Assembly: GCA_965205385.1 (NCBI GenBank)
Contig: CBDBGS010000008.1
Location: 745,752 to 809,751 of the forward strand
DNA: 64,000 nt
Source: Dehalococcoidia bacterium
Lineage (GTDB): Bacteria > Chloroflexota > Dehalococcoidia > Lucifugimonadales > UBA3495
Direction: 5' to 3'
In this document: in pieces, positions 5,904 through 58,246 of the stretch
How positions within the stretch are numbered: position 1 is the stretch's first letter
Layout of the letters: the number at the start of each line of letters is the position of its first letter
Notes under the pieces: model-generated
Database searches by the model: none
Seen by the model: only the letters and a program-made list of their open reading frames with translations
What the model was told of the DNA's origin: nothing
Made by a program: the position numbers and the translations under genes

Positions 5904-6182
5904 TTGCCTCCGGCGGTATGCGATAATGGGCGCATGGAAGTAACCGTCCGATTCTTTGCCCTCTACCGGGAGCGGGCGGGGTTGAGCAGCGCGTTAGTTG
6001 AGATTTCCGAAGGCGCTTCGGTTAACGACTTGACTGACAGTGTCAGGCGACGGTTTCCCCGTCTCGCACCCCCAGAGGTGAAGATCGTAGTTGCCGTCAA
6101 TGCTGAATATGCGGAACCGGAGCAAGTCCTCCGGCCGGGTGACGACGTGTGTCTCATCCCGCCGGTGAGCGGAGGATCATGA
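5904..6182 (+). CDS. moaD: MoaD/ThiS-family sulfur carrier (molybdopterin synthase small subunit)
   Basis: 92 aa ending ...LIPPVSGGS. It sits immediately upstream of, and overlaps, moaE. There is one residue after the Gly-Gly. Confidence 0.65.
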   Translation: MPPAVCDNGRMEVTVRFFALYRERAGLSSALVEISEGASVNDLTDSVRRRFPRLAPPEVKIVVAVNAEYAEPEQVLRPGDDVCLIPPVSGGS

Positions 6183-6643
6183 TGATTGAGCTTACCTTCG
6201 ACCCTCTCGATCCGGAGAAAGTCACCGGGAAGGTGCGCCGGAACTCCAACGGCGCGGTCGTAACCTTTCTGGGAACGACACGGGACAATTTCGAAGGTAA
6301 GCGCGTGGTCACCCTCGAATATGAAGCCTTCGACGAGATGGCCATCAAGGAACTTGAAAAGGTCCGCCAGCAGTTGATTGCCGAGTTTGGCATCGAAGAC
6401 CTCGCGATTTCCCATCGCATAGGGCGTGTGGATATCGGAGAAATTAGCCTGGTTGTGGCTGTTGCGTCGCCCCACCGGAACGAAGCGTTTTACGCATGCC
6501 ACCAGGCCGTAGACCGGCTCAAGGAAACGGTCCCCATCTGGAAGAAAGAGGTCTACGAGGACGGTTCCAGGTGGGTTGCATGTGAAGACCACGAGTTTGA
6601 CCACGAACACGCCGGAGTAGCCGACACAACAGGGGACTGCTAG
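6179..6643 (+). CDS. moaE: molybdopterin synthase catalytic subunit MoaE
   Basis: The track ORF starts at 6149. ATGATG at 6179, preceded by GGAGGA, gives a typical ~154-aa MoaE (MMIELTFDPL...GAVVTFLGTTRD...PIWKKE). Confidence 0.8.
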   Translation: MMIELTFDPLDPEKVTGKVRRNSNGAVVTFLGTTRDNFEGKRVVTLEYEAFDEMAIKELEKVRQQLIAEFGIEDLAISHRIGRVDIGEISLVVAVASPHRNEAFYACHQAVDRLKETVPIWKKEVYEDGSRWVACEDHEFDHEHAGVADTTGDC

Positions 6644-37777: not shown

Positions 37778-38564
37778 ACGAAATGCCAGTAATCACCGGG
37801 AAGGGCGGTATCGGCAAGTCTACCGCCTTGCGGTGTGTCCTACCGCCATCGCTCCAGTACACATTCACGGATGGGCTGAACCTAGCGGCCAACCCGAAGG
37901 AACGTATCGAAGCGTTACAGGGGCGCTCCATCGTGGAAGCGGCGGAGATGCAAGGCGCAAGGCGAGCCGATATTGAATCTCTCAAGGCGTTCCTATCGCG
38001 TACCGACGATGGCAGCACGCGGCTATCCTACCGCCACAACCCGGAACCAATGCCCAGGCGGTGCATAATCGTAGGCACAGCCGACCGGCCCGACCCGCTA
38101 CCCGATGATCCCAACCTACGCCGATTCGTTCCGATCACACTCACAGGCGGAAGCCCGCAAGACGTTATGGAATTTCTGGACGAATGGCGGGACCAACTCT
38201 GGGCCGAGGCACTCTACCTTTACGATCACGGCGAGAGCGCACGGCTACCAGATGAATTGAAAGCACTACAGAAGGAAGCCACCGAGTCCGCACGTTCCCG
38301 CGATTCCGTGCTTGAAGATTTGATAGAGCGATGGCTAGAGGATGGACGTGACCTATTCACCATTGAAGCGGTAGCCACAGGCATAGGACTAACAGACATG
38401 GGTAAGTCCGCTAGGCTATCGCCCTATGACACCAAGCGCATATCGGGAGTGCTACGGCAAAAGGGCTTTGCATCAGTGTCCAAGCGCATCGACGGCAAGA
38501 CAGTACGCCGATGGGCGTTACTACCCGTTACAGATTCAGACCAATTCTAGGCACGATTGACCAA

Positions 38565-38733
38565 GTGTAACGGGTGTAACGGGTTGTAACGGCTAACTTT
38601 GGAGGGAAAGCAAGGAAATAATCCGTTGTGGGATATAGACGTGGGTAGGGCATAAATAAATAGTTAATAGCCCTACAGTATAAGACTCAAATCATCTCAA
38701 GAATTACCCGTTACACCCGTTACACCCGTTACA
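38565..38733. promoter_or_regulatory. iteron-flanked AT-rich region (putative island replication origin or operator)
   Basis: Three tandem (G/T)TGTAACGG(G/C) units occupy 38565-38593. Three perfect tandem CCCGTTACA units (the reverse complement) occupy 38707-38733. They flank ~110 bp of AT-rich DNA containing a GTAGGGC...GCCCTAC hairpin. One more CCCGTTACA copy lies at 38524-38532. The region sits directly 3-prime of the virE-like gene. Confidence 0.55.
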
Positions 38734-38754
38734 CACTGAATGGGAGGATGAACA

Positions 38755-39120
38755 ATGGCAACACATCTAATCTACGGCAAAGCCACGAACCGTATCAGAG
38801 GTGCGTCGGAAATTCACACATATTGCGGTGAGGTAATAGCCGAAGATCACCCAGATTTCGCCGCTTTGCGTGATTACGAGCCGGATCACACAGCCACCTT
38901 TTTCGCGACCATCTTCAACGACATACCTGACCTGTGTGAAGCGTGCCACCAAAAGGTTTTATCGCCGAGGATATACCACATTGACTCGGATAACGGACTG
39001 ACATATTGTGGATTGGATGCGGCCGAGGTTTGGACTGGCGGCCCGTTCATCTCCCCCTTATGCCAACCATGCCGCAATGGCTTGATTTCCGAACATCCGC
39101 TGTTTGGTGCTGCCAACTAG
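38755..39120 (+). CDS. hypothetical Cys-rich protein (island)
   Basis: 121 aa preceded by a GGGAGGA RBS. It has CxxC-like pairs (CEACHQK, CQPCRNG). No family assignment. Confidence 0.45.
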   Translation: MATHLIYGKATNRIRGASEIHTYCGEVIAEDHPDFAALRDYEPDHTATFFATIFNDIPDLCEACHQKVLSPRIYHIDSDNGLTYCGLDAAEVWTGGPFISPLCQPCRNGLISEHPLFGAAN

Positions 39121-39212
39121 CCCGGTTATGGCACCGCCGAAAATCCTTGGAGGGGCGTACCAGCGTTGGGCGGAGTGACGAACTACGTAGATACAAGAAA
39201 GAGGGAGGCAAG

Positions 39213-39572
39213 ATGAACAGACAAGGCAGCGATATGACCATTGGGCATGCTTTTGCGGCCCGATGGCTTGTCAGGAAATATGCTGAATACAAGAGCAATC
39301 CCAGAATGCAGCAGCGACAACCTGAACTTCCTCAGCCTGACGAGCTTGCCCAGCGAATTGCTGATGCTGTCGATTCCCATGTAGAACAGAAAATTCTTGA
39401 GCTTCGCATCAAGTTGCACGCTGTTGCTGTAGAGGTGGCGGATGGGACAGAGGGTTCCAAAGACCAAGTTGTGATCAGTTCGGATGAATTACTACAAGAC
39501 CGAGCTTTGGTACAGGTGGCCCACGAGTGCTTAAACACAACCTTAAGCGCGATGCACAAATTTCCCGTCTAA
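39213..39572 (+). CDS. hypothetical protein, positional candidate for a small terminase subunit
   Basis: This uses the internal ATG of track ORF 39006, preceded by AGAGGGAGG. It is 119 aa and sits directly upstream of, and overlapping, TerL. The call is positional only. Confidence 0.35.
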   Translation: MNRQGSDMTIGHAFAARWLVRKYAEYKSNPRMQQRQPELPQPDELAQRIADAVDSHVEQKILELRIKLHAVAVEVADGTEGSKDQVVISSDELLQDRALVQVAHECLNTTLSAMHKFPV

Positions 39573-41380: not shown

Positions 41381-42673
41381 ATGGATAGACCTGAGAGAAG
41401 AGAAATGACAGCAAGCCAACGCATTACCCTTCGTTTGTCCGCAGTCCGCAGCCGCTTGAACGAAATCGCCGGGGTAGAGGGTGACGACTTCACACCCGAA
41501 ATCAGGTCTGAGGCGGAAGCACTCCAACGGGAATACTCAGACCTGGAAACCCGCTACCGCTCCGCCACCATTGCCGAGTCCGCCGAAACCGAAACCCGCC
41601 AACACGACGAACCCGACCGGGAACTGCGGGAACGCATCGAACTGCGGGAACGGGCCACGCTCACCAACTACCTCCTGTCCGCTGCCCAGGGCCGGATGCC
41701 CCACGGCGCGGAACTGGAGCTACAGCAGGCGGCGGGCGTATCGGGAATCCCCGTTGAGCTTTTCGAGGTGCGCCAGCGCGAAACCCGCGCCGATGCGCCC
41801 ACAGGTTCACCCAGCACCGTGGGCGTCAACGTGGACCCGATTCGCCCGATGATCTATGCCCGTGCGGTGCTGCCCCGGTTGGGAGTGGCCATGCCTCGCG
41901 TGGAATCCGGCACCTACGCCACCATGACCATCACGGCGGACCTCAGTGCCGGGGCAATGGCGGCTGGGGCTGCCCGTGAGTCAACGGCGGCGACACTGAC
42001 GCCCAAGACCACCACCGCGCACCGGGTAAGCGGAAGGCTTTCCATCCGCATTGAGGACGTGGCCACCGTAGGCGTGGGCAACTTCGAATCCAGCTTGAGG
42101 CAGAACCTGACGCTTGTAATGTCTGACGAATTGGACAAGCTGGGTCTGACGGGTGATAACCAGGCTCCCAACCCGCAAGGACTGTTGCCCCAACTGACGG
42201 ACCCGACCGACCCGACCGATGCCGTCAACTTCGATGCCTTTGTCGAGGCGGTGGCCGGTGGAATCGACGGCGGGCCGTGGGCCGAATCCATGACGGCGGT
42301 GATGCTGCTGGTGAACCCGGAGACGCTGCGGAAGGCTGAAACCACCTTCCAGAGCGCCACCAACTACAAGGGTGAACTGAGCGCAGCCGCCTACATCCGG
42401 GCCAACAGCGCGGGTTTCTTTTCCAGCCGCTGGATGCCCGTCACGGCCAGCACAATAGCCCAAGCAATCCGCTACCGGCGCGGCACCATGGGCCTGGACG
42501 GGGTGGACGCCATGCGGACGGCGGTATGCCCGATGTGGAACGAAGTCAGCATTGACGACATATACTCCGATTCTGCCAGCGGTATCCGCCATTTCACGCT
42601 CCACAACCTGATAGGCGACGTGCTGATTGAGCAAACCGACGCCTATGAGCGGATAGACCTGAAGTTGGCATAG
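41381..42673 (+). CDS. HK97-fold major capsid protein with an N-terminal coiled scaffold (delta)-like domain
   Basis: 430 aa. The first ~130 aa are charged and helical. The rest has Phage_capsid-like blocks, and the gene is followed by a prohead protease. Confidence 0.7.
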   Translation: MDRPERREMTASQRITLRLSAVRSRLNEIAGVEGDDFTPEIRSEAEALQREYSDLETRYRSATIAESAETETRQHDEPDRELRERIELRERATLTNYLLSAAQGRMPHGAELELQQAAGVSGIPVELFEVRQRETRADAPTGSPSTVGVNVDPIRPMIYARAVLPRLGVAMPRVESGTYATMTITADLSAGAMAAGAARESTAATLTPKTTTAHRVSGRLSIRIEDVATVGVGNFESSLRQNLTLVMSDELDKLGLTGDNQAPNPQGLLPQLTDPTDPTDAVNFDAFVEAVAGGIDGGPWAESMTAVMLLVNPETLRKAETTFQSATNYKGELSAAAYIRANSAGFFSSRWMPVTASTIAQAIRYRRGTMGLDGVDAMRTAVCPMWNEVSIDDIYSDSASGIRHFTLHNLIGDVLIEQTDAYERIDLKLA

Positions 42674-42682
42674 AGGCCAGCG

Positions 42683-43339
42683 ATGGACTACCCGATATTT
42701 GACGGTGAGCTTGCTGTTGAAACTCGCCAAGATGGGGAGGGGCGGACTATCCGCGCCAGCTTCCCGTATAACCGCGTGGCCACCATCTCCTCGACCGGGC
42801 GCACAAGAAAAGAGGTGTTCCGCAGCGGTAGTCTTTCATGGCAAGTCCGCGAGTTTGAAAAGCTCCAACAGCAACTATCGGACACCATATCCGGGACGAT
42901 TTCCCGGTTTCAGCGTGACGCGGTGGAGGATGCCCTGGAAAAGCGAAATACGTTCCTGTTGGTGGGCCACGACTACAACCGGGCAATTGCCGACATGCGA
43001 TCCGGGACGTTGGCCGTGACGCATACCGATGATGCGGTCCTGCTACGCGCCGACATACCGGCTGAGGGGAAAGCGCCTAGCTGGGTAGAGGACGCCGTTA
43101 AGGGAATCAACGGCGGGCAAGTCCGGGGCGTGAGTCCTGGATTCCAAGTCCCGGCGCGACGTGGCGGGGAACGGCTGATACCGGAAGAGGGAGACGGCGG
43201 CGCGATGATGCGCGAGATCACGGACGCCGTAGCTTTCGAGTATTCGTTGCTGGCCCGCCCCGCGTACAGTGGCACCACCGTAGACGCCCGCGCCGATGAT
43301 CCCGCGCTGGTGCCACCTCGGAGACGGGTATGGCTCTGA
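42683..43339 (+). CDS. HK97-family prohead (maturation) protease, S78/U35 type
   Basis: 218 aa. LLVGHDYNRAIA...GQVRGVSPGF...EYSLLARPAY fits the prohead protease His/Ser block pattern. Confidence 0.7.
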   Translation: MDYPIFDGELAVETRQDGEGRTIRASFPYNRVATISSTGRTRKEVFRSGSLSWQVREFEKLQQQLSDTISGTISRFQRDAVEDALEKRNTFLLVGHDYNRAIADMRSGTLAVTHTDDAVLLRADIPAEGKAPSWVEDAVKGINGGQVRGVSPGFQVPARRGGERLIPEEGDGGAMMREITDAVAFEYSLLARPAYSGTTVDARADDPALVPPRRRVWL

Positions 43340-45279
43340 TAACCGCAGACGAATTCAGGGCTGCCCTTCGGCTTGGTGACGCACCGGAAGAAGTGGCCGA
43401 GGCCAACAGAATCTACACCTATGCTGTCGAGGCGGTAGAGAAGTACGCCTCCGGTGCCAGTGAGGCGGCGAAGTCTGAGGCGACCATCCGGCTAGGCTCC
43501 TACCTCTACGACCAACCCACTTCCAGCCGTGGCGACCACTACGCCGCAGCGGGACGAAACTCCGGTGCATGGGCCATCCTTGCGCCATACAGAATACGCC
43601 GGGCCGGGACCATAGGCGAGGCGGTCCAGATTGCCCGTGAGAGCGGTTCGCCAGGCAACCCCGTTATCGGCGTGGACGTTACAGGCGATATCCTGACCGT
43701 GACGTTTGCCGATGGGAGTATGGAAACCCACACTCTACCCGACACCGGCGTTGACCAAGTGGCGCGGGATAGCGCAGCGATGGCGGAAGCGACGGCGGCA
43801 GGGGCCGTTACGGACGCGGCCACCAACGCCTTGGCAGTTAGCGCGGCGCAGAGTACGGCGGATGGCAAGATAGACGAAGCCGATGCAAACATCCTGATAG
43901 CGGCGCACGCGGCCATAGTTACGGCGCACCATACGCCTCCCACTGGAGGCGCACCTACCTATACCCTGTTGGGTAGGGCATCTCTCACCACTAACCATTT
44001 TCTGTTCAGTGTGGAGCATGGAAACGTTCTCGCCGAAGAACTGATAAACGGCGAGGCGGAATCCCTTTTGCTTACGTTGACGGACTTCAACCGTCACTAC
44101 CATATATGGGAAATTCCGCTCCGGTGGCGCGACTACACCTACGGCCCTAACTACGAGTTTTACAAGGAATATGTCAACAATTCGACGGGCGCGGTTTCGG
44201 GCATGAACCTGGCGGTGGAGCGTAACACGTCCACAGCCGACACAACGGCCATTCTTAGCATGTTGACAACGGCGGTATTCGACACTGGCACACAATGCGC
44301 GGTGTACTCGGTAACTGGCGCTGGCGGAAGCGGTGGCGGCGGTGGCGGCGGGATGTTCTCTGGCACAGACCAACTAGCCAGAGACGCGGCGGCAACGGCG
44401 CAAGGTGAGATAGACACGCACGAGGCCAGCACTCATAACACCGACATAACGGCGCAAAGTACGGCGCTGAACGCACGGCAGACGGCGGAACAGGCGCAAA
44501 CCACGATTGAGACTCACGAGGCCAGCACCCATAACCACGACGCCACGGCGCGTACAGCGGCGGGGGCGGCGCAAAGTGAAATAGACGTGCATGAGGCGTC
44601 AACCCATAACCACGATGCCGGGGCACGTACAGCGGCGGCGAACGCACAGATAACGGCAGACACGGCGCAATCGGCTGCATCGGGCGCGCAATCCGATGCT
44701 GATACCGCGCAGACTACCGCCGGGCAAGCGCAAGCGACGGCGACGGCGGCGCAGACTGATATTGACAATCACGAGGCGTCAACCCACAACACCGATGCCG
44801 GGGCGCGCACGGCGGCGGCAAATGCTCAATCCGCTATCGAAGATCACGGACGCACAACCCATAACACCGATACCGTTGCCAGGAACGCGGCGGCGGCGGC
44901 GCAAACGGCGGCGGAAGCGGCGGCGGGCGGGCGGCCTACCGTGCTGTATGAAGCGGCAACGGCGGCGATTGGCGGGAGTACGGGGTTGATAACTGGCAAC
45001 GTGGTTTGCCCGGAAACTGGCGAGCTTGAATTCTATTTCGAGGGATTGACCGGCTCTCGGCAGGGCGGCGTTGCCTACGCTCGGATACCGGCGGCAAGGA
45101 TACGGGGCGCGGTGTCTGCGCTTACGACTGCCTACAACAATGACAATGAAAACGTGCTGGTAATCGCGCACGGGGCAAACCGTGGAATTGGGATAGCAGT
45201 ACAAGCGACCACCAACTATCTAATGCTGAACGCGCAGGCGGCGGGAAACCATTACATTCGCATATCGCACATAGCCTAG
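43330..45279 (+). CDS. gp6-like head-tail connector domain fused to a 550-aa repeat-containing extension
   Basis: The N-terminal ~100 aa (ITADEFRAALRLGD...IRLGSYLYDQ...ILAPYRIRR) fit Phage_connect_1. A globular segment and a poly-Gly tract (GAGGSGGGGGGG) follow. Then come five I(D/E)xHEASTHN(T/H)D...AR(T/N)AAxxAQ repeats and a C-terminal domain. The stop TAG is part of the CTAG target of the IS. Confidence 0.6.
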   Translation: MALITADEFRAALRLGDAPEEVAEANRIYTYAVEAVEKYASGASEAAKSEATIRLGSYLYDQPTSSRGDHYAAAGRNSGAWAILAPYRIRRAGTIGEAVQIARESGSPGNPVIGVDVTGDILTVTFADGSMETHTLPDTGVDQVARDSAAMAEATAAGAVTDAATNALAVSAAQSTADGKIDEADANILIAAHAAIVTAHHTPPTGGAPTYTLLGRASLTTNHFLFSVEHGNVLAEELINGEAESLLLTLTDFNRHYHIWEIPLRWRDYTYGPNYEFYKEYVNNSTGAVSGMNLAVERNTSTADTTAILSMLTTAVFDTGTQCAVYSVTGAGGSGGGGGGGMFSGTDQLARDAAATAQGEIDTHEASTHNTDITAQSTALNARQTAEQAQTTIETHEASTHNHDATARTAAGAAQSEIDVHEASTHNHDAGARTAAANAQITADTAQSAASGAQSDADTAQTTAGQAQATATAAQTDIDNHEASTHNTDAGARTAAANAQSAIEDHGRTTHNTDTVARNAAAAAQTAAEAAAGGRPTVLYEAATAAIGGSTGLITGNVVCPETGELEFYFEGLTGSRQGGVAYARIPAARIRGAVSALTTAYNNDNENVLVIAHGANRGIGIAVQATTNYLMLNAQAAGNHYIRISHIA

Positions 45280-47069
45280 AAACCGGGCCGAAAAGTCCTG
45301 GTTGGGTAGGGGGATTTGGGCAATAAAGCCGACGTGAGCAGGATCACGGACCACAGTTGTCCGAGCCGGACCGCGCAGAAATTGGCCGCAGCATGGGCGA
45401 CAACAAAGGGGACAATATTGAGGACGACGCTGCGGCCTGTTGCGCCGCCACCGGTACGGCCCGACCGCCCGAGTTTCCCGGCCACCAGGGTCAGGTTGGC
45501 TACCGTGGCAGCCAGATACAGCTGGAATCGCGTCTTGACCCTGCCGAAATAGCGGGACTGGCGAATGCCCAACTGGACCAGCCGGGCCAACCGGTGTTCC
45601 ACCACCACTCGGCGCACTCGATATTCGTCATAATGAGTGCTTTGCTGCAACGCTCGGGCCTGCTGCAGCAGGGCTTCCTGGGGATGGATCAGCACCCGCC
45701 GCCCCCTACTCCCCTTGGCTGCGATGCACTGGGACCGCAGTGGACATGTCCGACATTCGGCCCCGTCGAACTGGAAGGCCTGCAAGCGGTGGACCCGCCC
45801 TGTGCGACCCGTCCGCTTTCCCGCCGGCACGATGGTGTGGGTAACCTGTCCGGCGGGACAGGTGCAACTGCCCGCGGCCAGGTCAATATGGAAGTCCTCT
45901 TTCGGAAAGTGCTTCCGGTCGGGCCGTCCCGGCACTCTGGCCACCAACCGGCGTCCCGCATCGGCGAATGCCTGCCTGGTATCGCCATCCCCATAGGCGG
46001 CGTCGCCCATGGCTTCCTCCACCGGCACACCGGTGTTGGCCTCGCTCTGCTCCACCAATTCCAGCGATCCCAGGTTGTCCGGAGCGTTGCCGGGCAATAC
46101 CTCCACCGCGGTGATCAGCTGGGAGTCGGTGTCCACCACGATGGCCGCCTTGTGTCCGTCGAACCGTCTACTGCTGCTCTTGTGGCCGTGGCGCATCTCC
46201 GGGTCATGCACCGACATCATCCGGTCCCGGCTCACCCCGTCCTTGAGATTCACTCCGTCATCGGTCCGCTCCACGTCCTGGAGCAGCAACTGCCCCAGCA
46301 GTTCCGCCGCCGCCACTATCTGCTGCCGCTCAGCGCTATCCTCCCCCAATTCCCTCTGCGCCTGCCGCGACAACTCCAACAACCGGTCGGCGTCTCTCAC
46401 AATCTCGGCCAGCAGGGCCTGCCGCGCCCGTTTGTCGCTCCAGTCGATGGCCGACTCACCCTTCACGCTGGAACCCAGGTACCGCTCATATCCCCGGGCC
46501 TTGGCCCATTCTTTGACGCTGGACTTCTCCACTGCCGCCAGCGCCCGCAACAGCTTGACGATCCCGTCCGCCAACAGATTGTAGGTGTCCTTCACCGCGC
46601 CACGGCCCAGGATGTTGGTCGTGTCCAACGCCACCCGCATCCCGCGCCCTTTCAGATACCCCGACTCCCGGGCCAAACGCAGGCTGGACTCGAACACCTC
46701 CCGCACCTTGCCGTGCAGTATCAGCTGGGCGCGGAACACCTGCAGCGTGCTCTTGGCGAAGGGACGGTCTTCCACCTCAATCCCCAAGGCCACCTTCCAC
46801 CGGATGTCGAAGTCGGCCCGGGCCTTGGCCTCAGCGTCGCTCACCTTGTCGTGGGACTGGAGCAGGAGCGCCGTCGCCAGCAGGCTGGGCGGCACGCTGT
46901 CCCGGCCGTTGTCGGCGCAGTAGAACCCGGCGAAATCGGGGTCCCGGAACAGGCGGCCCCGCAGCGAGGCCAGCAGACCGTAGAAGGTGTCCCGCCCCAC
47001 GTGGTCCAGATACAACCGGTCTGCTTCCCAGAGGCCCCTCTGGTCCGACCGCTCTCCCAGCATGCTCAA
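45276..47069 (-). CDS. IS1182-family transposase (DUF772 N-terminal + DDE domain)
   Basis: 597 aa. GRDSVPPSLLATALLLQSHDKVSDAEAKARADFDIRWKVALGI is the DUF772 block. It also has the zinc-ribbon-like CTCPAGQ...CRTCPLRSQC and a C-terminal DDE region. Confidence 0.8.
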   Translation of the reverse strand: MSMLGERSDQRGLWEADRLYLDHVGRDTFYGLLASLRGRLFRDPDFAGFYCADNGRDSVPPSLLATALLLQSHDKVSDAEAKARADFDIRWKVALGIEVEDRPFAKSTLQVFRAQLILHGKVREVFESSLRLARESGYLKGRGMRVALDTTNILGRGAVKDTYNLLADGIVKLLRALAAVEKSSVKEWAKARGYERYLGSSVKGESAIDWSDKRARQALLAEIVRDADRLLELSRQAQRELGEDSAERQQIVAAAELLGQLLLQDVERTDDGVNLKDGVSRDRMMSVHDPEMRHGHKSSSRRFDGHKAAIVVDTDSQLITAVEVLPGNAPDNLGSLELVEQSEANTGVPVEEAMGDAAYGDGDTRQAFADAGRRLVARVPGRPDRKHFPKEDFHIDLAAGSCTCPAGQVTHTIVPAGKRTGRTGRVHRLQAFQFDGAECRTCPLRSQCIAAKGSRGRRVLIHPQEALLQQARALQQSTHYDEYRVRRVVVEHRLARLVQLGIRQSRYFGRVKTRFQLYLAATVANLTLVAGKLGRSGRTGGGATGRSVVLNIVPFVVAHAAANFCAVRLGQLWSVILLTSALLPKSPYPTRTFRPGF

Positions 47070-47142
47070 GCCCTCGCTATTTCTTGATGGCTCAAGTATA
47101 GCTGACCACCCGGCTGAAGCCAGTTTCCGGCCACGTTTCTAG
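45276..47142 (-). mobile_element. IS1182/IS5-superfamily insertion sequence in the intergenic CTAG
   Basis: The imperfect terminal inverted repeats are CTAGAAACCGGGCCGAAAAGT (45276-) and the reverse complement of CAGTTTCCGGCCACGTTTCTAG (-47142). CTAG is at both ends. Removing the element restores ...ISHIA-TAG followed by an AGGGG RBS and the next gene's ATG. Confidence 0.7.
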
Positions 47143-47151
47143 AGGGGTGTT

Positions 47152-47496
47152 ATGCCAGCCGACCGCCTAATCACCGTCAACCTCACAGGGGAAGGTATGC
47201 GGAACCAATACGGGGAATACGTCGAGGGCGAAGTTACGCCTATACGGACGTGGACAAGGCGGCGTGACAAGACACAAGAGGATATTGAATCTGAGGGGGG
47301 CGTCCTAACGAGTGTGCAACGTACTTGGCGCATTAGGTGGGACAGCAGGATAGCGGACGTTCCAGTGGTGCGCATCGAGGTGGTGGATGGGCCGTACACC
47401 TTCAACGTACTGAATCAAGTTGAGGTCACCGAGCAACGAGGCGGGCCAGACCTGCGGCGCAGGTTCATAGACATTGAAGGAGTGTACACCAGCTAA
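47152..47496 (+). CDS. phage head closure / head-tail adaptor protein
   Basis: 114 aa. Size, position and the TWRIRWDSRI...Y.F.V block are typical of the Phage_H_T_join family. Confidence 0.55.
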   Translation: MPADRLITVNLTGEGMRNQYGEYVEGEVTPIRTWTRRRDKTQEDIESEGGVLTSVQRTWRIRWDSRIADVPVVRIEVVDGPYTFNVLNQVEVTEQRGGPDLRRRFIDIEGVYTS

Positions 47497-48557
47497 TGCG
47501 TTTCCCATGGCAAAAGCGTGAAACAAGGCAAAGCGGCGGTGACTTCTCCGATGCCGTTGTCAGACTGATTGAAGCTCAGGCGGCGGGAACTGCTGCGGAC
47601 GCTTCCAGCACGGCGGCGGTGGAGGCGGCGTCTGGTGCGCTTTCACGGGCGTTTGCCATTGCCGAGGTAGTTGGAGACGGTTGGGTACAGGAAGCCGTGT
47701 CTCCGGCGTTCCTGGCGCAAGTGGGGCGTGATCTGGTTAGGTCGGGCGACTCATTGCATGTCATCGAAATGGACGGCAAGGGCAACGTGACCCTGTTGCC
47801 GTGTTCTTCATGGCACTTCGAGGGTGACGCTCACCCGGACACCTGGACCGTGCGGGCCACCTACTACGGGCCTAGCAGCAGCAGCACTCGGCACCTGCCC
47901 TTTAGCGGCGTGGTGTTCGTGAAGTGGGGCAGCACACCCGGTCAACCCTACACCGGCACGGGACCGCTATCGTGGGCGCATACCACCGCCAGACTTCAAT
48001 CCGAAACCGAACGCAGCCTTACCGACGAGGTACAAGGTCCATTGGCGCAAATCATAGCCATACCGCAAGATGGAGGTGACGGCGGCGAAGATGATCCGCT
48101 GGCGGAACTGAAAGCCGACATTCGGACGGCAAGAGGCCGCGCCCTGTTGGTGGAGACGGCGGCGGCGGGTTGGGGTGAGGGCAGAGGTGCCGCACCACAA
48201 CGCGACTGGCAAGCAAGCCGCCTTGGGCCGATGCCGCCGGAGAGCATGGCCACCATACGCAAGGACTCCTTTGGTTCGGTGGTGGCGGCGTGTGGCGCAT
48301 CGCCCGCCCTGTTCGACGACTCCGACGGCACCAGCAAGCGGGAAGCACTGAGACAGTGGCACATGGGAACGGTGCGGCCATTGGCGCGGCTGTTGGAAAC
48401 GGAGCTTACCGCCAAGCTGGAAACGCCGGTCAAGCTGACATTCGACGCCTACTCCCTGGACATCGCGGGGAGGGCGCAGGCGTTCAAGGCTTTCGTGGGC
48501 GGCGGGATGGACGTTAACGAGGCGTTGGTCAAGACGGGGTTGATGGACCCGGACTAA
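47496..48557 (+). CDS. HK97-family phage portal protein
   Basis: 353 aa. The start overlaps the previous stop (TAATG). It has Phage_portal-like central and C-terminal blocks (...ESMATIRKDSFGSVVAACGASPALF..., LETELTAKL). Confidence 0.65.
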   Translation: MRFPWQKRETRQSGGDFSDAVVRLIEAQAAGTAADASSTAAVEAASGALSRAFAIAEVVGDGWVQEAVSPAFLAQVGRDLVRSGDSLHVIEMDGKGNVTLLPCSSWHFEGDAHPDTWTVRATYYGPSSSSTRHLPFSGVVFVKWGSTPGQPYTGTGPLSWAHTTARLQSETERSLTDEVQGPLAQIIAIPQDGGDGGEDDPLAELKADIRTARGRALLVETAAAGWGEGRGAAPQRDWQASRLGPMPPESMATIRKDSFGSVVAACGASPALFDDSDGTSKREALRQWHMGTVRPLARLLETELTAKLETPVKLTFDAYSLDIAGRAQAFKAFVGGGMDVNEALVKTGLMDPD

Positions 48558-48587
48558 CCCTTCCTTCTGTAAGCCACGCACAGGCGC

Positions 48588-48630
48588 GAAACTAGGGGCG
48601 GTGGAGCCGAATGCCACCGCCCCTAGTTTT
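48588..48630. terminator. bidirectional Rho-independent terminator between portal and integrase
   Basis: A 13-bp perfect stem CTAGGGGCGGTGG / CCACCGCCCCTAG has AAA upstream and TTTT downstream. It lies between convergent genes. Confidence 0.75.
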
Positions 48631-48651
48631 CAGACCATGCCTAGCGCCTTA

Positions 48652-49845
48652 TTAGAAGGGCGATTGATCGGGAGCCACCATATCGCCCCACGCTTCCATG
48701 ATCGGACGCCGCTGGTCGATTAGGTCTGACCGAAAGTACGCCGCTTCCACCGCGCCTAGCGGATTATGACTAAGGCAATACTCAATCGCTACGCGGTCGT
48801 ATGTTCCTTGTTCCGCTGCCCAATCTCGGAAGCTGGAGCGGAAGCCGTGCGGGTGTGCGCCGATATTGTTGACGCGGGCAAACTTGGATAGGCAATTTTC
48901 CGATGGTGCCTTGCCGAGCTTCGGGAACACCAAACCCGTACTATCCGCCAACTTCCGCTTGGCTTCCCGGAGAACATCGACGGCGGCGCGGGATAGTGGC
49001 TTGCGGTGTTCCTTGCAATCCTTGGAGCGGTCCGCCGGGATTGACCATACCCGATGGTCAAGGTCGATTTCTTCCCAACGTGCGCCGCGTGCTTCGGCAG
49101 ACCGTGAAGCGGTCAGAATTAGGAATTCAAAACACAACCGCGTTACGGTCATAGCTTCCGAATCCCGGATGGTGTTGATTGCGTCTGGAACCTGCGAGTA
49201 GTGAAGGGCGGTAAAGTGGCCTTGAATCTTGGGGATTGGCGGCAACGCTGCGCTGATAACTTCGCCAGCGGGATTTACGTCTATGTGACCTTCCGCCATC
49301 GCGTACCGGCAGACCTTGGACATCGCCTGGCGCATCTTCCGGGAGGTTTCAACCTTGGATACCCGGAGTCCCTTTAGGATGCAAATCACGTCCTGGCGGC
49401 TAACTTCGGTGATCGGGATATCGCCAATGACCGGGAGGACGTGCAATTCCATCTGCTGTATCCAAGTCTTACGCGCCTTGTCAGACCGCCAGCGGTTCGC
49501 GTAAACGTCCTGGACCGTGTACGTCAAATCCCGGAAGGTTGGGACGCCTTTGGATTCTTCGGACTGGACGCGAAGTTTGCCAGTGGCCCAAGGATTCCCA
49601 CCACCAGCAACAACTACGCGGTTGGCAAGGGCAAGGTCACGCGCCTTACTGAGCGAAATATCCTTGACGGAGCCGAGACCCTTATCTGTGCGCGTGCCGT
49701 CAACGGTGATTCTCTGGACCCAACTTTTGGAACCGCTAGGCGAGATGTTCAGGTATAGGCCGTTACCATCGCCATATCTTCCCGGTTCTTTTAGACTCTT
49801 TACCTTTGCCGCTACCAGTGCCATTTTGCCCACTCCCTTTACCAC
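48652..49845 (-). CDS. int: tyrosine recombinase, P4-type integrase with DUF4102 arm-binding domain
   Basis: GDGNGLYLNISPSGSKSWVQRI is the DUF4102 block. The catalytic region contains ...TASRSAEARGARWEEID..., HGFRSSFRDWAAE and LSH...AY. The likely true start is the ATG at 49824 (MALVAAKVKSLK). The start is about 105-125 nt from the tRNA 3-prime end. Confidence 0.85.
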   Translation of the reverse strand: MVKGVGKMALVAAKVKSLKEPGRYGDGNGLYLNISPSGSKSWVQRITVDGTRTDKGLGSVKDISLSKARDLALANRVVVAGGGNPWATGKLRVQSEESKGVPTFRDLTYTVQDVYANRWRSDKARKTWIQQMELHVLPVIGDIPITEVSRQDVICILKGLRVSKVETSRKMRQAMSKVCRYAMAEGHIDVNPAGEVISAALPPIPKIQGHFTALHYSQVPDAINTIRDSEAMTVTRLCFEFLILTASRSAEARGARWEEIDLDHRVWSIPADRSKDCKEHRKPLSRAAVDVLREAKRKLADSTGLVFPKLGKAPSENCLSKFARVNNIGAHPHGFRSSFRDWAAEQGTYDRVAIEYCLSHNPLGAVEAAYFRSDLIDQRRPIMEAWGDMVAPDQSPF

Positions 49846-49900
49846 GTTACCACTTGAGTTTTACCACGCTATTTACCACACCACGCGGAATTTACCACAG
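49838..49900 (+). promoter_or_regulatory. five arm-type repeats (T)TTACCAC between int and the tRNA
   Basis: Copies start at 49838, 49846, 49859, 49872 (TTTACCACACC, identical to 34119-34129) and 49891. All share one orientation. Confidence 0.55.
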
Positions 49901-49949
49901 ATTAGGCGTGGAAATCTATACCTAGAAGGGGCAAATACTGACCAATAAG

Positions 49950-50021
49950 TACCCCCGGAGAGAATCGAACTCTCGTCTCTGGCTCCGGAGGCCAGCACTC
50001 TATCCGCTGAGCTACAGGGGC
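49950..50021 (-). tRNA. tRNA-Arg (anticodon CCG), no encoded CCA
   Basis: The minus strand folds as acceptor GCCCCTG with D, anticodon and T arms, with anticodon loop CTCCGGA and T arm GAGAG-TTCGATT-CTCTC. The 3-prime acceptor strand is CGGGGGT followed by A. The acceptor stem has G-U pairs. Confidence 0.85.
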
Positions 50022-52934: not shown

Positions 52935-53777
52935 TTAAGCCGCCCGGTAGGTCATACCCTGTTCCACGGCGGCGACCTGTCCCTCGTCTTCTAGCTTCTT
53001 CAGGTGGGATACCACTTGGTGCCGCGCCAACCACAGGCGGCGCTGGCTGGAGTCGCCGTAGATCCGGGCCACCAGGTCGTCGACCCCGCCCATGCCCTCT
53101 CGTACCATTATCAGAATCTGCTCTTCCCGTTCCAGCCTGTGCCGCACCAACTCTGGAATCTGGGTGAGGGGATCGTTCATCACTGGACCATGACCCGATA
53201 CGACGGTCGTGATGCCCATGTCCAGCAGGACTTCCAGCGACTTAATGTGCTGGGCCATCGAGCCTCCCTCGTCGCTCCTCACGACCACCGTTCCTTGGCC
53301 CATGATGTGGTCCCCGGTAAACAGGATGCCCTCATCCTGTACCAGATAGCACATGGTCCCGGAGGTGTGGCCGGGAGTTGCGACCGCCCGCACTACGCGG
53401 CCACCCAAGTCGAATTGTTCGCCGCCGGTCAGGGGTAAATCGACGACTCCCGTGCCTTCCCCCACGTCGGTCTCGACGGCTTCGGCGTCATCCCGGCCTA
53501 CACCTATCTGGCAGCCCGTGGTTTCCTTGAGAATCTTGACTCCTCCCGCGTGCTCGTAGTGGCGGTGGCTAACCAGGACCCAACTCGTGGGAAAGCTGTC
53601 CAGGGGGCCGCGCCAGTAATCGAGGATGGGCTGAGTGCGGGGCAAGTCAGGGAAACCTGCGTCGATGAAGAGGCCCGTCTCCGTGCCCTTTACGTAGAAC
53701 GCGCTTACTGACGGGCCACCCTCCGTTGCGCCGGTCTCCCCCAGCTCAATTCGGTAAATCCCGTCCAAGATTTCCAT
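52935..53777 (-). CDS. MBL-fold metallo-hydrolase with a C-terminal winged-helix-like tail
   Basis: 280 aa with a metal motif region (VLVSHRHYEHAGG) and TPGHTSG. Confidence 0.75.
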   Translation of the reverse strand: MEILDGIYRIELGETGATEGGPSVSAFYVKGTETGLFIDAGFPDLPRTQPILDYWRGPLDSFPTSWVLVSHRHYEHAGGVKILKETTGCQIGVGRDDAEAVETDVGEGTGVVDLPLTGGEQFDLGGRVVRAVATPGHTSGTMCYLVQDEGILFTGDHIMGQGTVVVRSDEGGSMAQHIKSLEVLLDMGITTVVSGHGPVMNDPLTQIPELVRHRLEREEQILIMVREGMGGVDDLVARIYGDSSQRRLWLARHQVVSHLKKLEDEGQVAAVEQGMTYRAA

Positions 53778-53799
53778 TCCTTGCTCCTATGTCGCACAA

Positions 53800-54486
53800 T
53801 TAAGGTTCTAATTCGTCAGAAAGCGTTTGTGATGATTGTATATCGTCTCGACGGCGATAAGCAGATGTCACTGCAGCATTCTCTATATCGGTTCGAAACC
53901 AGTCTACCAATTGAATTATTTCGCTATGTAGATCGTTATAATCAACGGGATCGATCTCTGGTCGCTCCCCATGAGCTACCAAGTTCCGATTGGCCAATAG
54001 CCGATGATCTAGCAATGCTCCCTTTGGCGAATATGCCTTCCCGTCTAGACCCAAGAGGAAAAACACTTCGTTTAATACCTTAGAATTCAGGTTCCCACGT
54101 GTCTCAAAGGCGTTCTCCCACCCTAATATAGCCGTGTCCGAGAGCCCTGCCGTGAGTCTCGTAATCAGCTCTGTGCGTAGGGATGGGAGGTTAGACTGCC
54201 CTGCTTGTCGGATCTGCTCTCGCAGACCTATCGCTACGAAGTTTGGAGTAAGGTCTCGATATCGCAGATTGCGGGAGGCTACGAAGGATAAGTAACTGGT
54301 CGCTGCTGCTTTGATAAACCCTTCCCAATAGGCGTAGAGTAGGCATATTCCTGCGCGCAAGAGCAACATTCTCTCGTGTGGTCGAGACTTGCCTAGCATA
54401 AACCTGAGTGTTGTCAGTTCTTTCTTTCGCCACGCAAGCTCCGAGTCCAGAAACTCTGACAACTCGATAAGGGTACGAATCCTCAC
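53800..54486 (-). CDS. HEPN-domain protein, RiboL-PSP / MAE_28990-like predicted RNase
   Basis: 228 aa with LLYAYWEGFIKAA near the N-terminus and the Rx4H HEPN motif in LANRNLVAHGE. The GTG start overlaps the upstream stop (GTGA). The gene is low in GC. Confidence 0.6.
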   Translation of the reverse strand: MRIRTLIELSEFLDSELAWRKKELTTLRFMLGKSRPHERMLLLRAGICLLYAYWEGFIKAAATSYLSFVASRNLRYRDLTPNFVAIGLREQIRQAGQSNLPSLRTELITRLTAGLSDTAILGWENAFETRGNLNSKVLNEVFFLLGLDGKAYSPKGALLDHRLLANRNLVAHGERPEIDPVDYNDLHSEIIQLVDWFRTDIENAAVTSAYRRRDDIQSSQTLSDELEP

Positions 54487-55595
54487 GTACCAAATAGGTT
54501 TCGGCCGAGAGGGATGGTCGTGGTAATTCGGGACGAAGCTCGAACTCCCATGCCGATGTTAGCCAGAAACGTAGTGTCTGACCAAAGTGATTTGGAAACT
54601 TGTACGACATTGGGATCTTTGGAGCCGTCAGCATAGAATGAGTAATGGTGACCCAAACCGATGGCTAAGGGTTCGAAAGCCGATATCAAGAATCCGCCGA
54701 GATACCGGCCTCTGTCTTGATCAAATCTACGAAAGCTACTGTCAGACAGGGATTTTGCAAGGGTCTCAAACGTGAATCTGAAAGCATGTTCCTCTTCCGC
54801 CTTGATCTCTTGAAATTTGTCGCATTCCGCGATCTTGACGATCCTATCAGTGAGGAAATCTCCGATGTCGCCCATGGCGCGTAGTTCCTGCTCTTCGAGA
54901 TTCCTAAAAACTAAGAAACGGACAACCAGTTCGAGGTGGTATTGCTCCGAACGCTGCCGGTCAGATAGGGCCACACAGGTTTGGAAGTTGTCATCATCGG
55001 CGAGATCTCTAACCCATTGATAGGCCTCGCGATTGACCATAATGAGAATCACATTTCTCACTTCTTGTTCCGATAGGAAAGACCCTCCAGTGTTCAGTCT
55101 TTGAAAAAGCTCGTATTTGGTTGACTCACTGCTTTCGCGGAGTATTACCTTAACATCAATTTTTGAGCGCCTAATGATGAGCTGATTAGTGCTGCCGATT
55201 GACAAGGATGGGTCCTCAGCTTCCCATATCCTGCCTTCCAGAGAAGGAAGGTATTTGGTGCCCTTTAGCATCAAGGGATCGACTGGGTTTCCCTTCTCAT
55301 CCTTCAAGTGCCCGACTAGCTGGAAGATGGTCGCCAACCTCTGTAATCCATCAATCACATCCCAAACGCCATCCTCTCTTTGAGAAACAAATATTGATGG
55401 CAGGGGAATTCCCAGCAATATTGATTCGATTAGCCGGGACTTCTGATGATCATTCCATCTGTAGAACCTTTGAAATTCCGGATGGATATCTAACTCACCG
55501 TCTCTATATATATTTATGAGCTCACCGATGGACATCGGGTAACCATCACTACGAATTTCGGCACGCTTTGATTCAATTTCTTGGTCGAGGCTCAT
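54483..55595 (-). CDS. DUF262 (ParB-like nuclease/NTPase domain) protein
   Basis: It has the DUF262 hallmarks IHPEFQRFYRW and VIDGLQRLATI. I chose the ATG at 55595 (MSLDQEIE), which has a GGAG RBS; the track ORF starts at 55634. There is no DUF1524/HNH C-terminal domain. Confidence 0.7.
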   Translation of the reverse strand: MSLDQEIESKRAEIRSDGYPMSIGELINIYRDGELDIHPEFQRFYRWNDHQKSRLIESILLGIPLPSIFVSQREDGVWDVIDGLQRLATIFQLVGHLKDEKGNPVDPLMLKGTKYLPSLEGRIWEAEDPSLSIGSTNQLIIRRSKIDVKVILRESSESTKYELFQRLNTGGSFLSEQEVRNVILIMVNREAYQWVRDLADDDNFQTCVALSDRQRSEQYHLELVVRFLVFRNLEEQELRAMGDIGDFLTDRIVKIAECDKFQEIKAEEEHAFRFTFETLAKSLSDSSFRRFDQDRGRYLGGFLISAFEPLAIGLGHHYSFYADGSKDPNVVQVSKSLWSDTTFLANIGMGVRASSRITTTIPLGRNLFGT

Positions 55596-55847
55596 ACCAA
55601 TGCTCCAAAGAGTGATTCGTGAGGAACCGTGCACTGCCCGTAAGATCCGCCTCGAGTTCTAACCAGAGCCATCGCAAGTCCGTCCATTGGAGATCTAGAT
55701 CGACGCTTCCAAAGACGGATCAACCACTAAGACTGATCTTTAGGATTGTCTCTGTCCTGGTCCTCAGGAATTTGAGGGACGAGATACCAAAGGATCTGAA
55801 TGGAACTCCTTGCCGAGGTGTTCCAGCAGTCTCCGCTTTGGGCGAGA

Positions 55848-56405
55848 TCAGGCGTGGGAAAAACCGGGAGAGCTCCGGTCGAGAGGGTCCTGGCCAAGGC
55901 CCAGGTACTTGTGCCGGAGGCGGTCCCAAAGGTCCAATCGGTCCCATTCCGGGTCCTTGATGATCGTTTGTTCGTCGGTAAGGAATGGGTTCGGAAGCAT
56001 GAAAGTGATTTGTTGCTCATCCGCGCCGTTGAACAGCCGCAACCCCCAGTCACCGGGTTTGCCGTTGCTGAGACGACGGTAGAGCTCGGCACGGGCTGTC
56101 TGGCGCCGCTTGGCAAGCTCTGGTGGGGATCCCTTGTGTTCCCCGATGCAGATGTGAAAGTGCCAGTCCTGGAAGTCGATGGTGGCATAACCGTCGAAAG
56201 TCTTGATCCTTGGCTTGCGGGGAGGACGAATCTCCCAGGCTGCCCCCTGAATCAGCGGACCGATGTGAAGGTGTTCCCACTCCTCAAAGCAGTCTTCGAA
56301 TATCGCCAGTAGGGTGGCTTCATCGTTCGGCAAGGGGAACATCTCGAAAACTCCGTCTTCTTCCTGGACGATGTTCCCTCGCTGGCCTGTTTGTTGGGAG
56401 CTCAT
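55848..56405 (-). CDS. hypothetical protein
   Basis: The ATG at 56405 (MSSQQTG...) is preceded by GGAG. It is ~185 aa, rich in acidic and aromatic residues, and I recognise no family. Confidence 0.45.
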   Translation of the reverse strand: MSSQQTGQRGNIVQEEDGVFEMFPLPNDEATLLAIFEDCFEEWEHLHIGPLIQGAAWEIRPPRKPRIKTFDGYATIDFQDWHFHICIGEHKGSPPELAKRRQTARAELYRRLSNGKPGDWGLRLFNGADEQQITFMLPNPFLTDEQTIIKDPEWDRLDLWDRLRHKYLGLGQDPLDRSSPGFSHA

Positions 56406-56600
56406 TCTTACGTCTCCTGGACCCGCGAGGCTCGCGGGTGGTAGGAATGCGGAACAAGCCAAATTCTAACCCCTACCTGGTTGCGTTGCCTAGCGGCGGC
56501 GTCTTCAGCCCTCACCATTCGCCGTTGACAGCCTCAACGGCCGCCCATACACTCGCCTACACGTCCCGTAATCCCCTGACCCCTGGAGGAAAACCGGAAC

Positions 56601-57436: not shown

Positions 57437-58246
57437 ATGCAAGGGCGAACTATCTTTGGCGGCTCTACTCCAATGGGTTTGTGGGTCAGTGTCTTCCTAA
57501 CGGTAGGAATCGCGCTACCTTTGGCTGGATTCTTCGCCTCGCCTAGCGCAACCCTAGCGACATGCGCCGTCTCTGAGGGAGATGACCAGGACTATAAGTA
57601 CGGTGGATTTTACTATTCTGGAGGATTATCCGGCTCAGGTTATGCAATACGGGCCGACCTTTGGAATTACAACCCTTCCCCCGTCTTCGAGGGAACGGCG
57701 TTCTGGGTTATGTGGGAAAATTCGTTCGCGTATGCTCAAGTGGGTTGGGCCAAGGAAGACGATGATTCAGCCGAGTATGTATTCTTACAATATACCGATG
57801 AAGATGGCGAAAACGTGTGGACGAGATACTATAATGCATCCACAGACTTATGGGTGAGAAGCCCTGCCACACAGCCGTCTAGTTCCAAAGAATACACGGT
57901 TACCTGGGTAGCGGGGAGTGGAGGCGGCGAGCCTCATCAATTCCAGTTCGTATATGACGGCGGGAAGATCTATGCCGCCAACCCTGATTGGGAACCGGAG
58001 GGGTGGCAGGTTATGGCGGAAACACTGAATTTCAGAAGCGTTTCCCCGACGGACAAGGGTGACCACGCGGCAGGAGATACTACAAATAAGATCCACGCCG
58101 ATGATATAGAACTCTACGATACTGCTGTGGGATGGCACGATGTGGAGTATTACATTAATATAAAGCCCGAAGGTAACCACGACACCGATACTGTGGGAGT
58201 CACAGATACAGGTTTCAGAGTATGGGATAAACGATGCGCCAGCTAA
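57437..58246 (+). CDS. secreted/membrane-anchored hypothetical protein
   Basis: 269 aa with an N-terminal hydrophobic segment. It is Trp/Tyr/Asp-rich, lower in GC than the surroundings, and has no recognised family. Confidence 0.45.
   Translation: MQGRTIFGGSTPMGLWVSVFLTVGIALPLAGFFASPSATLATCAVSEGDDQDYKYGGFYYSGGLSGSGYAIRADLWNYNPSPVFEGTAFWVMWENSFAYAQVGWAKEDDDSAEYVFLQYTDEDGENVWTRYYNASTDLWVRSPATQPSSSKEYTVTWVAGSGGGEPHQFQFVYDGGKIYAANPDWEPEGWQVMAETLNFRSVSPTDKGDHAAGDTTNKIHADDIELYDTAVGWHDVEYYINIKPEGNHDTDTVGVTDTGFRVWDKRCAS

Follow-up and report, generated by a model that had tools for sequence, protein, structure and literature searches.

The 64-kb stretch of Dehalococcoidia bacterium DNA analyzed in this study (the window) carries two overlapping genes on its minus strand, designated A and B. 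Gene A encodes a ParB-like DUF262 (GmrSD_N) protein with a helical C-terminal domain, and gene B encodes a HEPN protein of the RiboL-PSP/MAE_28990 type. The locus is probably a two-gene immunity cassette of the PD-T4-2 class, self-contained and spread by horizontal transfer. This class was predicted in 2013 and validated in 2022; what is new here is a divergent subfamily. A validated defense architecture, the mechanism of which is unsolved, is extended to uncultured Dehalococcoidia and many cyanobacteria, and the understanding of how such systems work is left unchanged. An earlier reading of the window, made from its letters without database searches (the sequence-only reading), had proposed a candidate anti-phage or abortive-infection system. 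The domains of the two proteins, their strict pairing, the mobility of the family and the PD-T4-2 precedent agree with that proposal.

Domains and motifs of the two proteins

Protein A matches Pfam family PF03235 (GmrSD_N/DUF262) with an E value of 2.5e-24, well above the gathering threshold. This is the only family found for A, no DUF1524/HNH domain was detected in either A or B (Pfam, E≤1), and the close homologues of A in the database carry PF03235 only. The DUF262 signatures named by the sequence-only reading (FQRFYRW and DGLQRLAT) are present, and it had also been right that A lacks a DUF1524/HNH half. The motifs of A are QRxxxW (residues 42-47), DGxQR (82-86) and FxxxN (164-168). Database matches to the A family number at least 7,687, and A also matches the PHROG family phrog_2598, the function of which is unknown (2.5e-71). 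The helical C-terminal domain is probably DNA-binding.

Protein B matches two Pfam families, PF18735 (HEPN_RiboL-PSP; E 5e-32, above the 28.4-bit cut-off) and PF18737 (HEPN_MAE_28990; E 1.2e-30, well above the gathering threshold). The motifs RNLVAH and LLYAYWEGF, on which the HEPN call had first been based, are both there, and the former is the Rx4H motif of B (R167-N-L-V-A-H172). The AlphaFold model of B is entirely helical, which is what a HEPN protein would be expected to show, with a predicted local distance difference test score (pLDDT) of 87.3 and a predicted template modeling score (pTM) of 0.83. In PHROG, B matches phrog_22325 (function unknown) at 1.6e-50. An exhaustive HMMER census of the B family gave 2,563 representative clusters, 809 of them at E≤1e-30. 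Nearly all representatives are stand-alone proteins of about 215 aa, compared with 228 aa for B in the window. One representative, P0262, has 408 aa with a B-like region at residues 250-405, and may be a fusion or a mis-called gene.

Organization of the gene pair

Gene A occupies positions 54483-55595 of the minus strand and encodes 370 aa from an ATG at 55595. The mechanical open reading frame (ORF) is longer (54483-55634, 383 aa from a GTG at 55634), and the sequence-only reading had accordingly let A reach 55634. The true start is almost certainly the ATG, because a GGAG Shine-Dalgarno sequence (55606-55603, minus strand) precedes it by 7 nt and the homologues are of 370 aa: a 99%-identical database protein and essentially all of the close ones have this length and begin with MSLDQE or MSLD. 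The in-frame extension upstream of the ATG (55596-55634, minus strand) is probably untranslated.

Gene B (53800-54486, minus strand) encodes 228 aa. Its GTG start overlaps the stop codon of A (TGA, 54485-54483, minus strand), and the resulting GTGA at 54483-54486 of the minus strand is where the sequence-only reading had placed the overlap of the two ORFs. As read from the junction, this overlap indicates translational coupling of A and B. The intergenic region 5' of the cassette (55596-55847, minus strand) is its presumed promoter or leader. A scan for sigma-70-like promoters, which is uninformative for Chloroflexota, found none on the minus strand upstream of A, and no terminator was found in a scan of 55596-55847. 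The leader contains no tandem repeat, has no Rfam match and folds no better than shuffled RNA (z = 0.08). A type III toxin-antitoxin (TA) system, that is, an AbiF-like HEPN protein with an RNA antitoxin, was considered and rejected on these grounds. No direct or inverted repeats were found flanking the cassette and no tRNA gene adjoins it; the nearest is a tRNA-Arg gene 3.8 kb off, which marks a separate prophage.

Conservation of the pair

A scan of one genome per species yielded 162 relatives of B. Locus counts refer to the best 80 of these, and residue invariance and A/B distances to 71 intact pairs. In 80 of 80 loci, B is immediately preceded on its strand by a homologue of A (46-70% identical to it), and A likewise directly precedes B in 9 of the 9 viral contigs of IMG/VR with a relative of B. 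The two genes overlap by 4 bp in 53 loci and by 1 bp in 20 (73/80 together); the exceptions include one locus with an insertion sequence (IS) in B (L020) and two with a frameshifted A (L028 and L073). Residues Q42, W47, D82, G83, R86, F164 and N168 of A are invariant (71/71), with R43 kept in 69 and Q85 in 70 of the pairs. In B, R167, N168, A171 and G173 are invariant (71/71) and H172 is kept in 70. Since the active-site residues of both proteins are essentially invariant, both enzymes are under purifying selection. The pairwise distances of A and B co-vary, with a Pearson r of 0.945. Strict pairing, translational coupling, essentially invariant catalytic sites and this tight co-divergence constrain future work on the mechanism.

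A few locus pairs have discordant A and B distances (L032 and L041 versus L006, L022 and others; L072 versus L049, L066 and L078), for example 0.31 for A with 0.56 for B, and 0.30 for A with 0.09 for B. These discordant pairs suggest occasional recombination between A and B, which would amount to partner shuffling. A putative transposase of 350 aa with a Zn-ribbon-like motif is encoded by the insertion in L020 (4002-6061, 2 kb), which interrupts B near codon 25. This locus and, if their frameshifts are real, the two with a frameshifted A are natural knock-outs of the cassette.

A tightly coupled pair of this kind could also be a TA or addiction module. In such a module, B would be a constitutively active HEPN RNase toxin that A neutralizes by binding, phage defense would be incidental, and the cassette would persist as its loss kills the cell. 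The tight coupling, with the putative neutralizer encoded first, is as in type II TA operons, and TA systems with HEPN toxins are known, HepT/MNT among them (DARNA preprint). However, A has 370 residues and nucleoside triphosphatase (NTPase) motifs that are essentially invariant (71/71 for the key residues), which is unexpected for a simple binding antitoxin. Moreover, in L028 (around 9393-9405) and L073 (around 9380-9384), A is frameshifted at residues 165-170, beside FxxxN, while B and its RNxxAHG motif are intact; were A an essential antitoxin, such a state would be lethal. Both loci come from long-read metagenome-assembled genomes (MAGs), and the frameshifts could be real pseudogenes or long-read homopolymer errors. 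PD-T4-2, which has a matching architecture, protects its native strain against T4. We therefore regard addiction as a rather unlikely explanation of the locus. Addiction and immunity could both apply, since many abortive-infection systems resemble TA systems.

Base composition, distribution and mobility

The G+C content of the cassette is 47.6%, compared with a window mean of 59.0% (standard deviation 2.8). It is the lowest-GC 1.8-kb segment of the 64 kb, and 0 of 1174 non-overlapping positions are as low. Hand counts in the sequence-only reading (40-48% against 60-65%) had the direction right and somewhat exaggerated the difference. At third codon positions (GC3), the cassette has 49-51% and five flanking genes have 68-76%, a deficit of about 20-25 points. 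The G+C content of the pair is below that of its ±5-kb flanks in 80 of 80 loci, by a mean of 10.4 points. G+C is also reduced (about 46-51%) in two further stretches of the window, one around 38500-39500 and the other at 57437-58246, where a 269-aa ORF with an N-terminal hydrophobic segment lies just beyond the CoA-transferase gene.

The hosts of the family are patchily distributed. The closest relatives are in Dehalococcoidia and other Chloroflexota, and there are many in cyanobacteria; single host genomes belong to Spirochaetia, Armatimonadota, Planctomycetota, Thiomargarita and Dictyobacter. Distant pairs of the family are found on plasmids: a mobilizable 5.7-kb Col-type plasmid of Enterobacter, in which the pair spans the record origin, the 3.9-kb E. 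coli plasmid pLR-27_3, an IncF plasmid, in which the pair adjoins IS66, and plasmids of Psychrobacter and B. cereus, in which it lies beside BsuBI/PstI-type restriction-modification (R-M) genes. They are also found in phages. A temperate Terrisporobacter phage has the pair between its repressor region and its integrase, with a DNA methyltransferase next in line; in a P2-like prophage of E. coli, the CI repressor is on one side of the pair and the integrase on the other. The low G+C content relative to the flanks, the patchy distribution and the carriage on plasmids and prophages bear out the horizontal acquisition that had been proposed from base composition. Two features also fit addiction: the pair is the main cargo of the tiny 3.9-kb and 5.7-kb plasmids, to which addiction would be of use, and on chromosomes the cassette usually stands alone among housekeeping genes.

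The B. cereus plasmid pBCK802 (NZ_CP016597.1) and the viral contig UViG_2852409570_000001 of IMG/VR (71,854 bp) are the same 71.9-kb replicon (L087 and L097). This double listing, together with an AimR arbitrium receptor that the replicon encodes, makes it a likely phage-plasmid. Its small defense cluster consists of a GIY-YIG nuclease, a BsuBI/PstI-family restriction enzyme, the DUF262 and HEPN pair and a 567-aa AAA ATPase.

Relation to PD-T4-2

PD-T4-2 of E. coli ECOR65 consists of two ORFs described as 'DUF262, HEPN' and was validated against T4; its deletion in the native strain raised T4 plaquing (Vassallo et al. 2022). By HHpred, PD-T4-2A is DUF262 (99.7%), and PD-T4-2B is HEPN_RiboL-PSP (97.8%) and HEPN_MAE_28990 (96.9%) (Vassallo et al. 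2022). PF18735 is given under PD-T4-2 in a review (PMC10952713), and a 2025 study names PD-T4-2 as one of several DUF262 systems lacking DUF1524 that 'remain largely uncharacterized' (PMC12065111). The pairing itself goes back to the 2013 survey, in which RiboL-PSP HEPN is listed as an 'operon with ParB' (Anantharaman et al. 2013). The sequence-only reading had pointed to this survey, and its statement that no experimental characterization was known is superseded by the validation of PD-T4-2, which has the same architecture.

The pair in the window resembles PD-T4-2 in several respects. In each, the first gene encodes a DUF262/GmrSD_N protein of about 360-385 aa that lacks DUF1524, and the second a small HEPN protein of the RiboL-PSP type (PF18735). 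The two genes share a strand, are neighbors or overlap, and stand in the order A, B; both families are also carried on mobile elements. They differ in the size of B (228 aa in the window and about 215 aa in the subfamily, compared with the 168 positions of the PD-T4-2_B profile) and in host range, which for the subfamily of the window is Chloroflexota and Cyanobacteria. The pair in the window is also chromosomal among housekeeping genes and not prophage-borne. Judged by sequence, then, it has the same architecture and Pfam families as PD-T4-2 but is a clearly different, divergent subfamily.

As a proxy for PD-T4-2, we used the pair in the P2-like prophage of E. coli 504239, which matches both PADLOC profiles and is not the ECOR65 sequence itself. 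It scores 1.8e-55 on PD-T4-2_A over the full profile length and 1.4e-8 on PD-T4-2_B, and its B protein matches PF18735 at 2.2e-19. In BLASTP, A of the window is 31% identical to the proxy A over the N-terminal 172 residues only (E 3e-23). The prophage pair (NZ_CP025859.1, locus 5916-7686; L095) encodes a 384-aa GmrSD_N protein and a 211-aa HEPN protein of the PD-T4-2 family and is present in about 10 complete E. coli chromosomes. Its site between CI and integrase differs from the P2 hotspot of Vassallo et al., which lies between the replication endonuclease and portal genes.

On PADLOC profiles, A scored best with NsnA (2.3e-57, residues 23-310 of the 383-aa ORF, profile positions 40-307 of 385) and also matched PD-T4-2_A (1.6e-26, profile positions 41-289 of 363). 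The NsnA match suggested membership of Menshen, which consists of NsnA, the ABC-ATPase NsnB and the polymorphic effector NsnC, with an inactive-PIN N-domain and a toxin C-domain (Millman 2022; PMC12065111); NsnA is its proposed sensor (PMC12065111). Protein A is indeed NsnA-like, and the alignment extends past DUF262 into the C-terminal region called ParBDB (PMC12065111). However, the gene after A encodes a HEPN protein and is followed by the MBL (metallo-beta-lactamase) hydrolase gene of the host, with no ATPase or NsnC-like gene. No ATPase gene follows the pair in the relatives L001, L002 and L091, and neither NsnB nor NsnC is among the 25 most recurrent PADLOC families in the neighborhoods of 33 loci. 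With NsnB and NsnC absent, membership of Menshen was rejected. Even E. coli proteins with PD-T4-2_A matches of 4e-50 to 2e-55 obtain better scores with NsnA, so that the NsnA match of A reflects a broad profile and not membership.

A number of results weigh against assignment of the cassette to the PD-T4-2 class or against a role in immunity. Protein B has no PADLOC match at E≤1, the PD-T4-2_B profile included, and strict PADLOC-defined membership of PD-T4-2 therefore fails. In hhalign, the B family of the window aligns with the proxy B over 19 columns in the RNxxAHG region only, and the same region only aligns with two further HEPN proteins of E. coli, both plasmid-borne. The case for homology between B and PD-T4-2B is therefore their membership of the same Pfam families. 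The C-terminal half of A gave no BLASTP alignment to the proxy A. Structural comparison adds little: a PDB sequence search found no relative of either family, and Foldseek with the B model found no PDB entry at E≤1e-3, the HEPN entries 1jog and 2hsb scoring 0.5-1.1. The model of A has a pLDDT of 68 overall, good at residues 180-370 and poor in the DUF262 domain because the alignment is shallow (20 sequences, 63-80% identical to the query), and with this poorly modelled domain the fold search gave no significant PDB neighbor. Phage protection has been demonstrated for PD-T4-2 of E. coli ECOR65 only, and a literature search found no mechanistic study of PD-T4-2.

The neighborhoods belong with these adverse results. 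We compared 132 immediate neighbors from 33 loci with Pfam and PADLOC. There is no signal of enrichment in defense islands at these loci, because the chromosomal neighbors are mostly housekeeping genes (transketolase, methylmalonyl-CoA mutase, tRNA synthetases, sulfate permease and dehydrogenases); the enrichment that the sequence-only reading had envisaged as a check was thus not seen. Defense-like neighbors are few: two Eco57I methylases and two Uma2 by Pfam, and six mad2, two mad6 and two to three kinase-type matches by PADLOC. No third gene recurs among the neighbors. PD-T4 systems themselves were reported as not enriched in defense islands (Vassallo et al. 2022).

Since PADLOC PD-T4-2_B misses this subfamily, with its 2,563 representative HEPN clusters, the defense inventories of these phyla undercount such systems.

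Diverged cassette alleles and their probable replacement at one chromosomal site

Two other loci, in the Dehalococcoidia MAG OZ250155.1 (L005) and in L091, are collinear with the window around the cassette. All three share the order CoA-transferase, DUF7676, A, B, MBL hydrolase, epimerase, an 89-aa ORF and Memo. In the window, the DUF7676 gene (55848-56462) adjoins the cassette upstream of A, and the MBL-fold hydrolase gene (52935-53777, minus strand) begins 22 bp downstream of the cassette on the same strand, with no terminator between. The alleles compared were 53780-55900 of the window, 8866-10712 of L005 and 8001-9784 of L091.

Among the three genomes, nucleotide identity is 91-97% in the flanking genes (83-92% in the DUF7676 gene) and 67-78% in A and B. 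In sliding windows, identity to L005 is 87-98% outside the cassette and 57-73% within it, with abrupt edges at about 53780 and 55900. These edges, together with synonymous divergence (dS) and the GC minimum, give the approximate extent of the low-GC, allele-swapped cassette (53780-55900). The upstream intergenic region lies within the swapped segment and is barely alignable with that of L005 (37-62% identity, with gaps). Between the window and L005, A and B are saturated at synonymous sites, with a nonsynonymous divergence (dN) of about 0.2, and the flanking genes have a dS of 0.11-0.41. Since A and B are saturated while their flanks are near-identical, they are anciently diverged alleles at one site. 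The dS of the DUF7676 gene is 1.1, which suggests that a recombination tract extends into this gene. The shared site indicates replacement of the cassette by recombination or its repeated acquisition at a hotspot, and not merely fast evolution. An empty site was sought by probing JGI metagenomes with the flanking MBL gene; this returned distant MBL relatives alone (29-31% identity) and no informative locus. Three near-identical backgrounds with diverged alleles at one site are a clean natural example of defense-cassette replacement by recombination.

The constant position next to the MBL gene raises the possibility that A and B are a domesticated housekeeping or regulatory pair, acting for example in RNA turnover, co-transcribed with the hydrolase and without a role in conflict. 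In all three related genomes, the MBL gene follows the pair on one strand after 22 bp, without a terminator, and the neighbors are metabolic genes. However, the MBL association is confined to these three close relatives, and none of the genes flanking the cassette in the window is present at any of the other 79 scanned loci. The low GC3, the saturation of the alleles between flanks that are 91-97% identical, and the occurrence of the family on plasmids, phages and prophages also argue against this explanation, which we consider very improbable. Synteny is limited to three very close relatives in which the alleles have been swapped. The locus is thus no core block free of mobile or defense links, the finding that the sequence-only reading would have held against a defense role.

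A bolder interpretation of the allele exchange is that the Chloroflexota and cyanobacterial subfamily (370 and 215 aa) is a mechanistically distinct immune module, missed by current defense-finders, that is kept at fixed chromosomal sites as a cassette with interchangeable alleles. Recombination would repeatedly swap diverged A-B alleles and so generate population-level diversity in what A senses. The locus would then resemble polymorphic toxin/immunity loci, and A would gate the RNase by an NTP-driven switch new to DUF262 systems. We judge this interpretation unlikely as it stands.

Comparison with DUF262 restriction systems and HEPN toxins

In the type IV restriction enzymes GmrSD and BrxU and the PT-sensing nickase SspE, DUF262 is an NTPase and sensor of modified DNA that switches on an attached DUF1524 nuclease (PMC12065111, PMC10952713). 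Protein A shares with them an N-terminal DUF262 domain with QRxxxW, DGxQR and FxxxN, followed by a helical middle domain. Their effector is a fused DUF1524/HNH DNase, whereas that of the window is a separate predicted HEPN RNase, and the predicted target is therefore RNA and not DNA.

It could nevertheless be argued that the system is like type IV restriction, with A as a nuclease or nickase on modified phage DNA and the HEPN protein as an accessory or regulator. DUF262 is the N-terminal module of GmrSD, BrxU and SspE, which act on modified DNA, and the partner of the HEPN protein was termed 'ParB nuclease' in the 2013 survey. Protein A has a weak match to the PADLOC profile of type II restriction endonucleases (1.5e-9), PD-T4-2 was selected on T4, the DNA of which has glucosyl-hydroxymethylcytosine, and relatives lie beside R-M genes and methyltransferases on plasmids and in phage. 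On the other hand, cutting is assigned to DUF1524 in GmrSD, BrxU and SspE, and this domain is absent here. The conservation of the Rx4H motif of B across 71 sequences further argues that B is the active effector. DNA targeting by A is accordingly quite improbable.

Protein B matches both Pfam models derived from the RiboL-PSP and MAE_28990 HEPN families of Anantharaman et al. (2013). What that survey offered was a computational prediction only. The endoRNase L-PSP fusion from which the family takes its name is absent in the window, and no methylase is adjacent there, in contrast to the Terrisporobacter phage relative, which has one. The HEPN toxins of TA and abortive-infection systems (HepT-MNT; AbiF/AbiD) are alike in having a growth-arresting HEPN RNase effector with an Rx4-6H motif in a compact, mobile two-component operon, and RiboL-PSP HEPN was described as distantly related to AbiF and AbiD (Anantharaman et al. 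2013). Unlike HepT, B is partnered by a protein with DUF262 only (Pfam) and not by an MNT nucleotidyltransferase.

Proposed mechanism

That A is a sensor and gates B, that the target is RNA and that the pair acts in defense in this host are inferred by analogy with the systems above. If the cassette is an immunity system of the PD-T4-2 class, A and B would be made in fixed stoichiometry, and the complex would hold B inactive. Protein A may sense a sign of infection; by analogy with the DUF262 domains of GmrSD/BrxU and SspE, foreign or modified DNA or a nucleotide signal would be the most plausible one. Binding or hydrolysis of NTP at the DGxQR site of A would then cause a conformational change that licenses the RNase of B. 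Dimers of B would cleave RNA (tRNA, rRNA or mRNA) through a composite Rx4H site, and this cleavage would stop translation, so that phage replication is aborted.

Other features of the window

A prophage or prophage remnant (41381-50021) abuts a tRNA-Arg(CCG) gene (49949-50021, minus strand). It contains genes for a tyrosine integrase (48655-49845, minus strand), a portal protein (47496-48554) and a DDE transposase (45279-47069, minus strand). Also within it are a prohead protease gene (42683-43336) and a weak capsid match (41381-42670) that falls slightly short of the Pfam cut-off. The synteny of the window with L005 and L091 ends exactly at the tRNA-Arg gene, where these two genomes carry instead a PIN/FitA TA pair and an ABC transporter.

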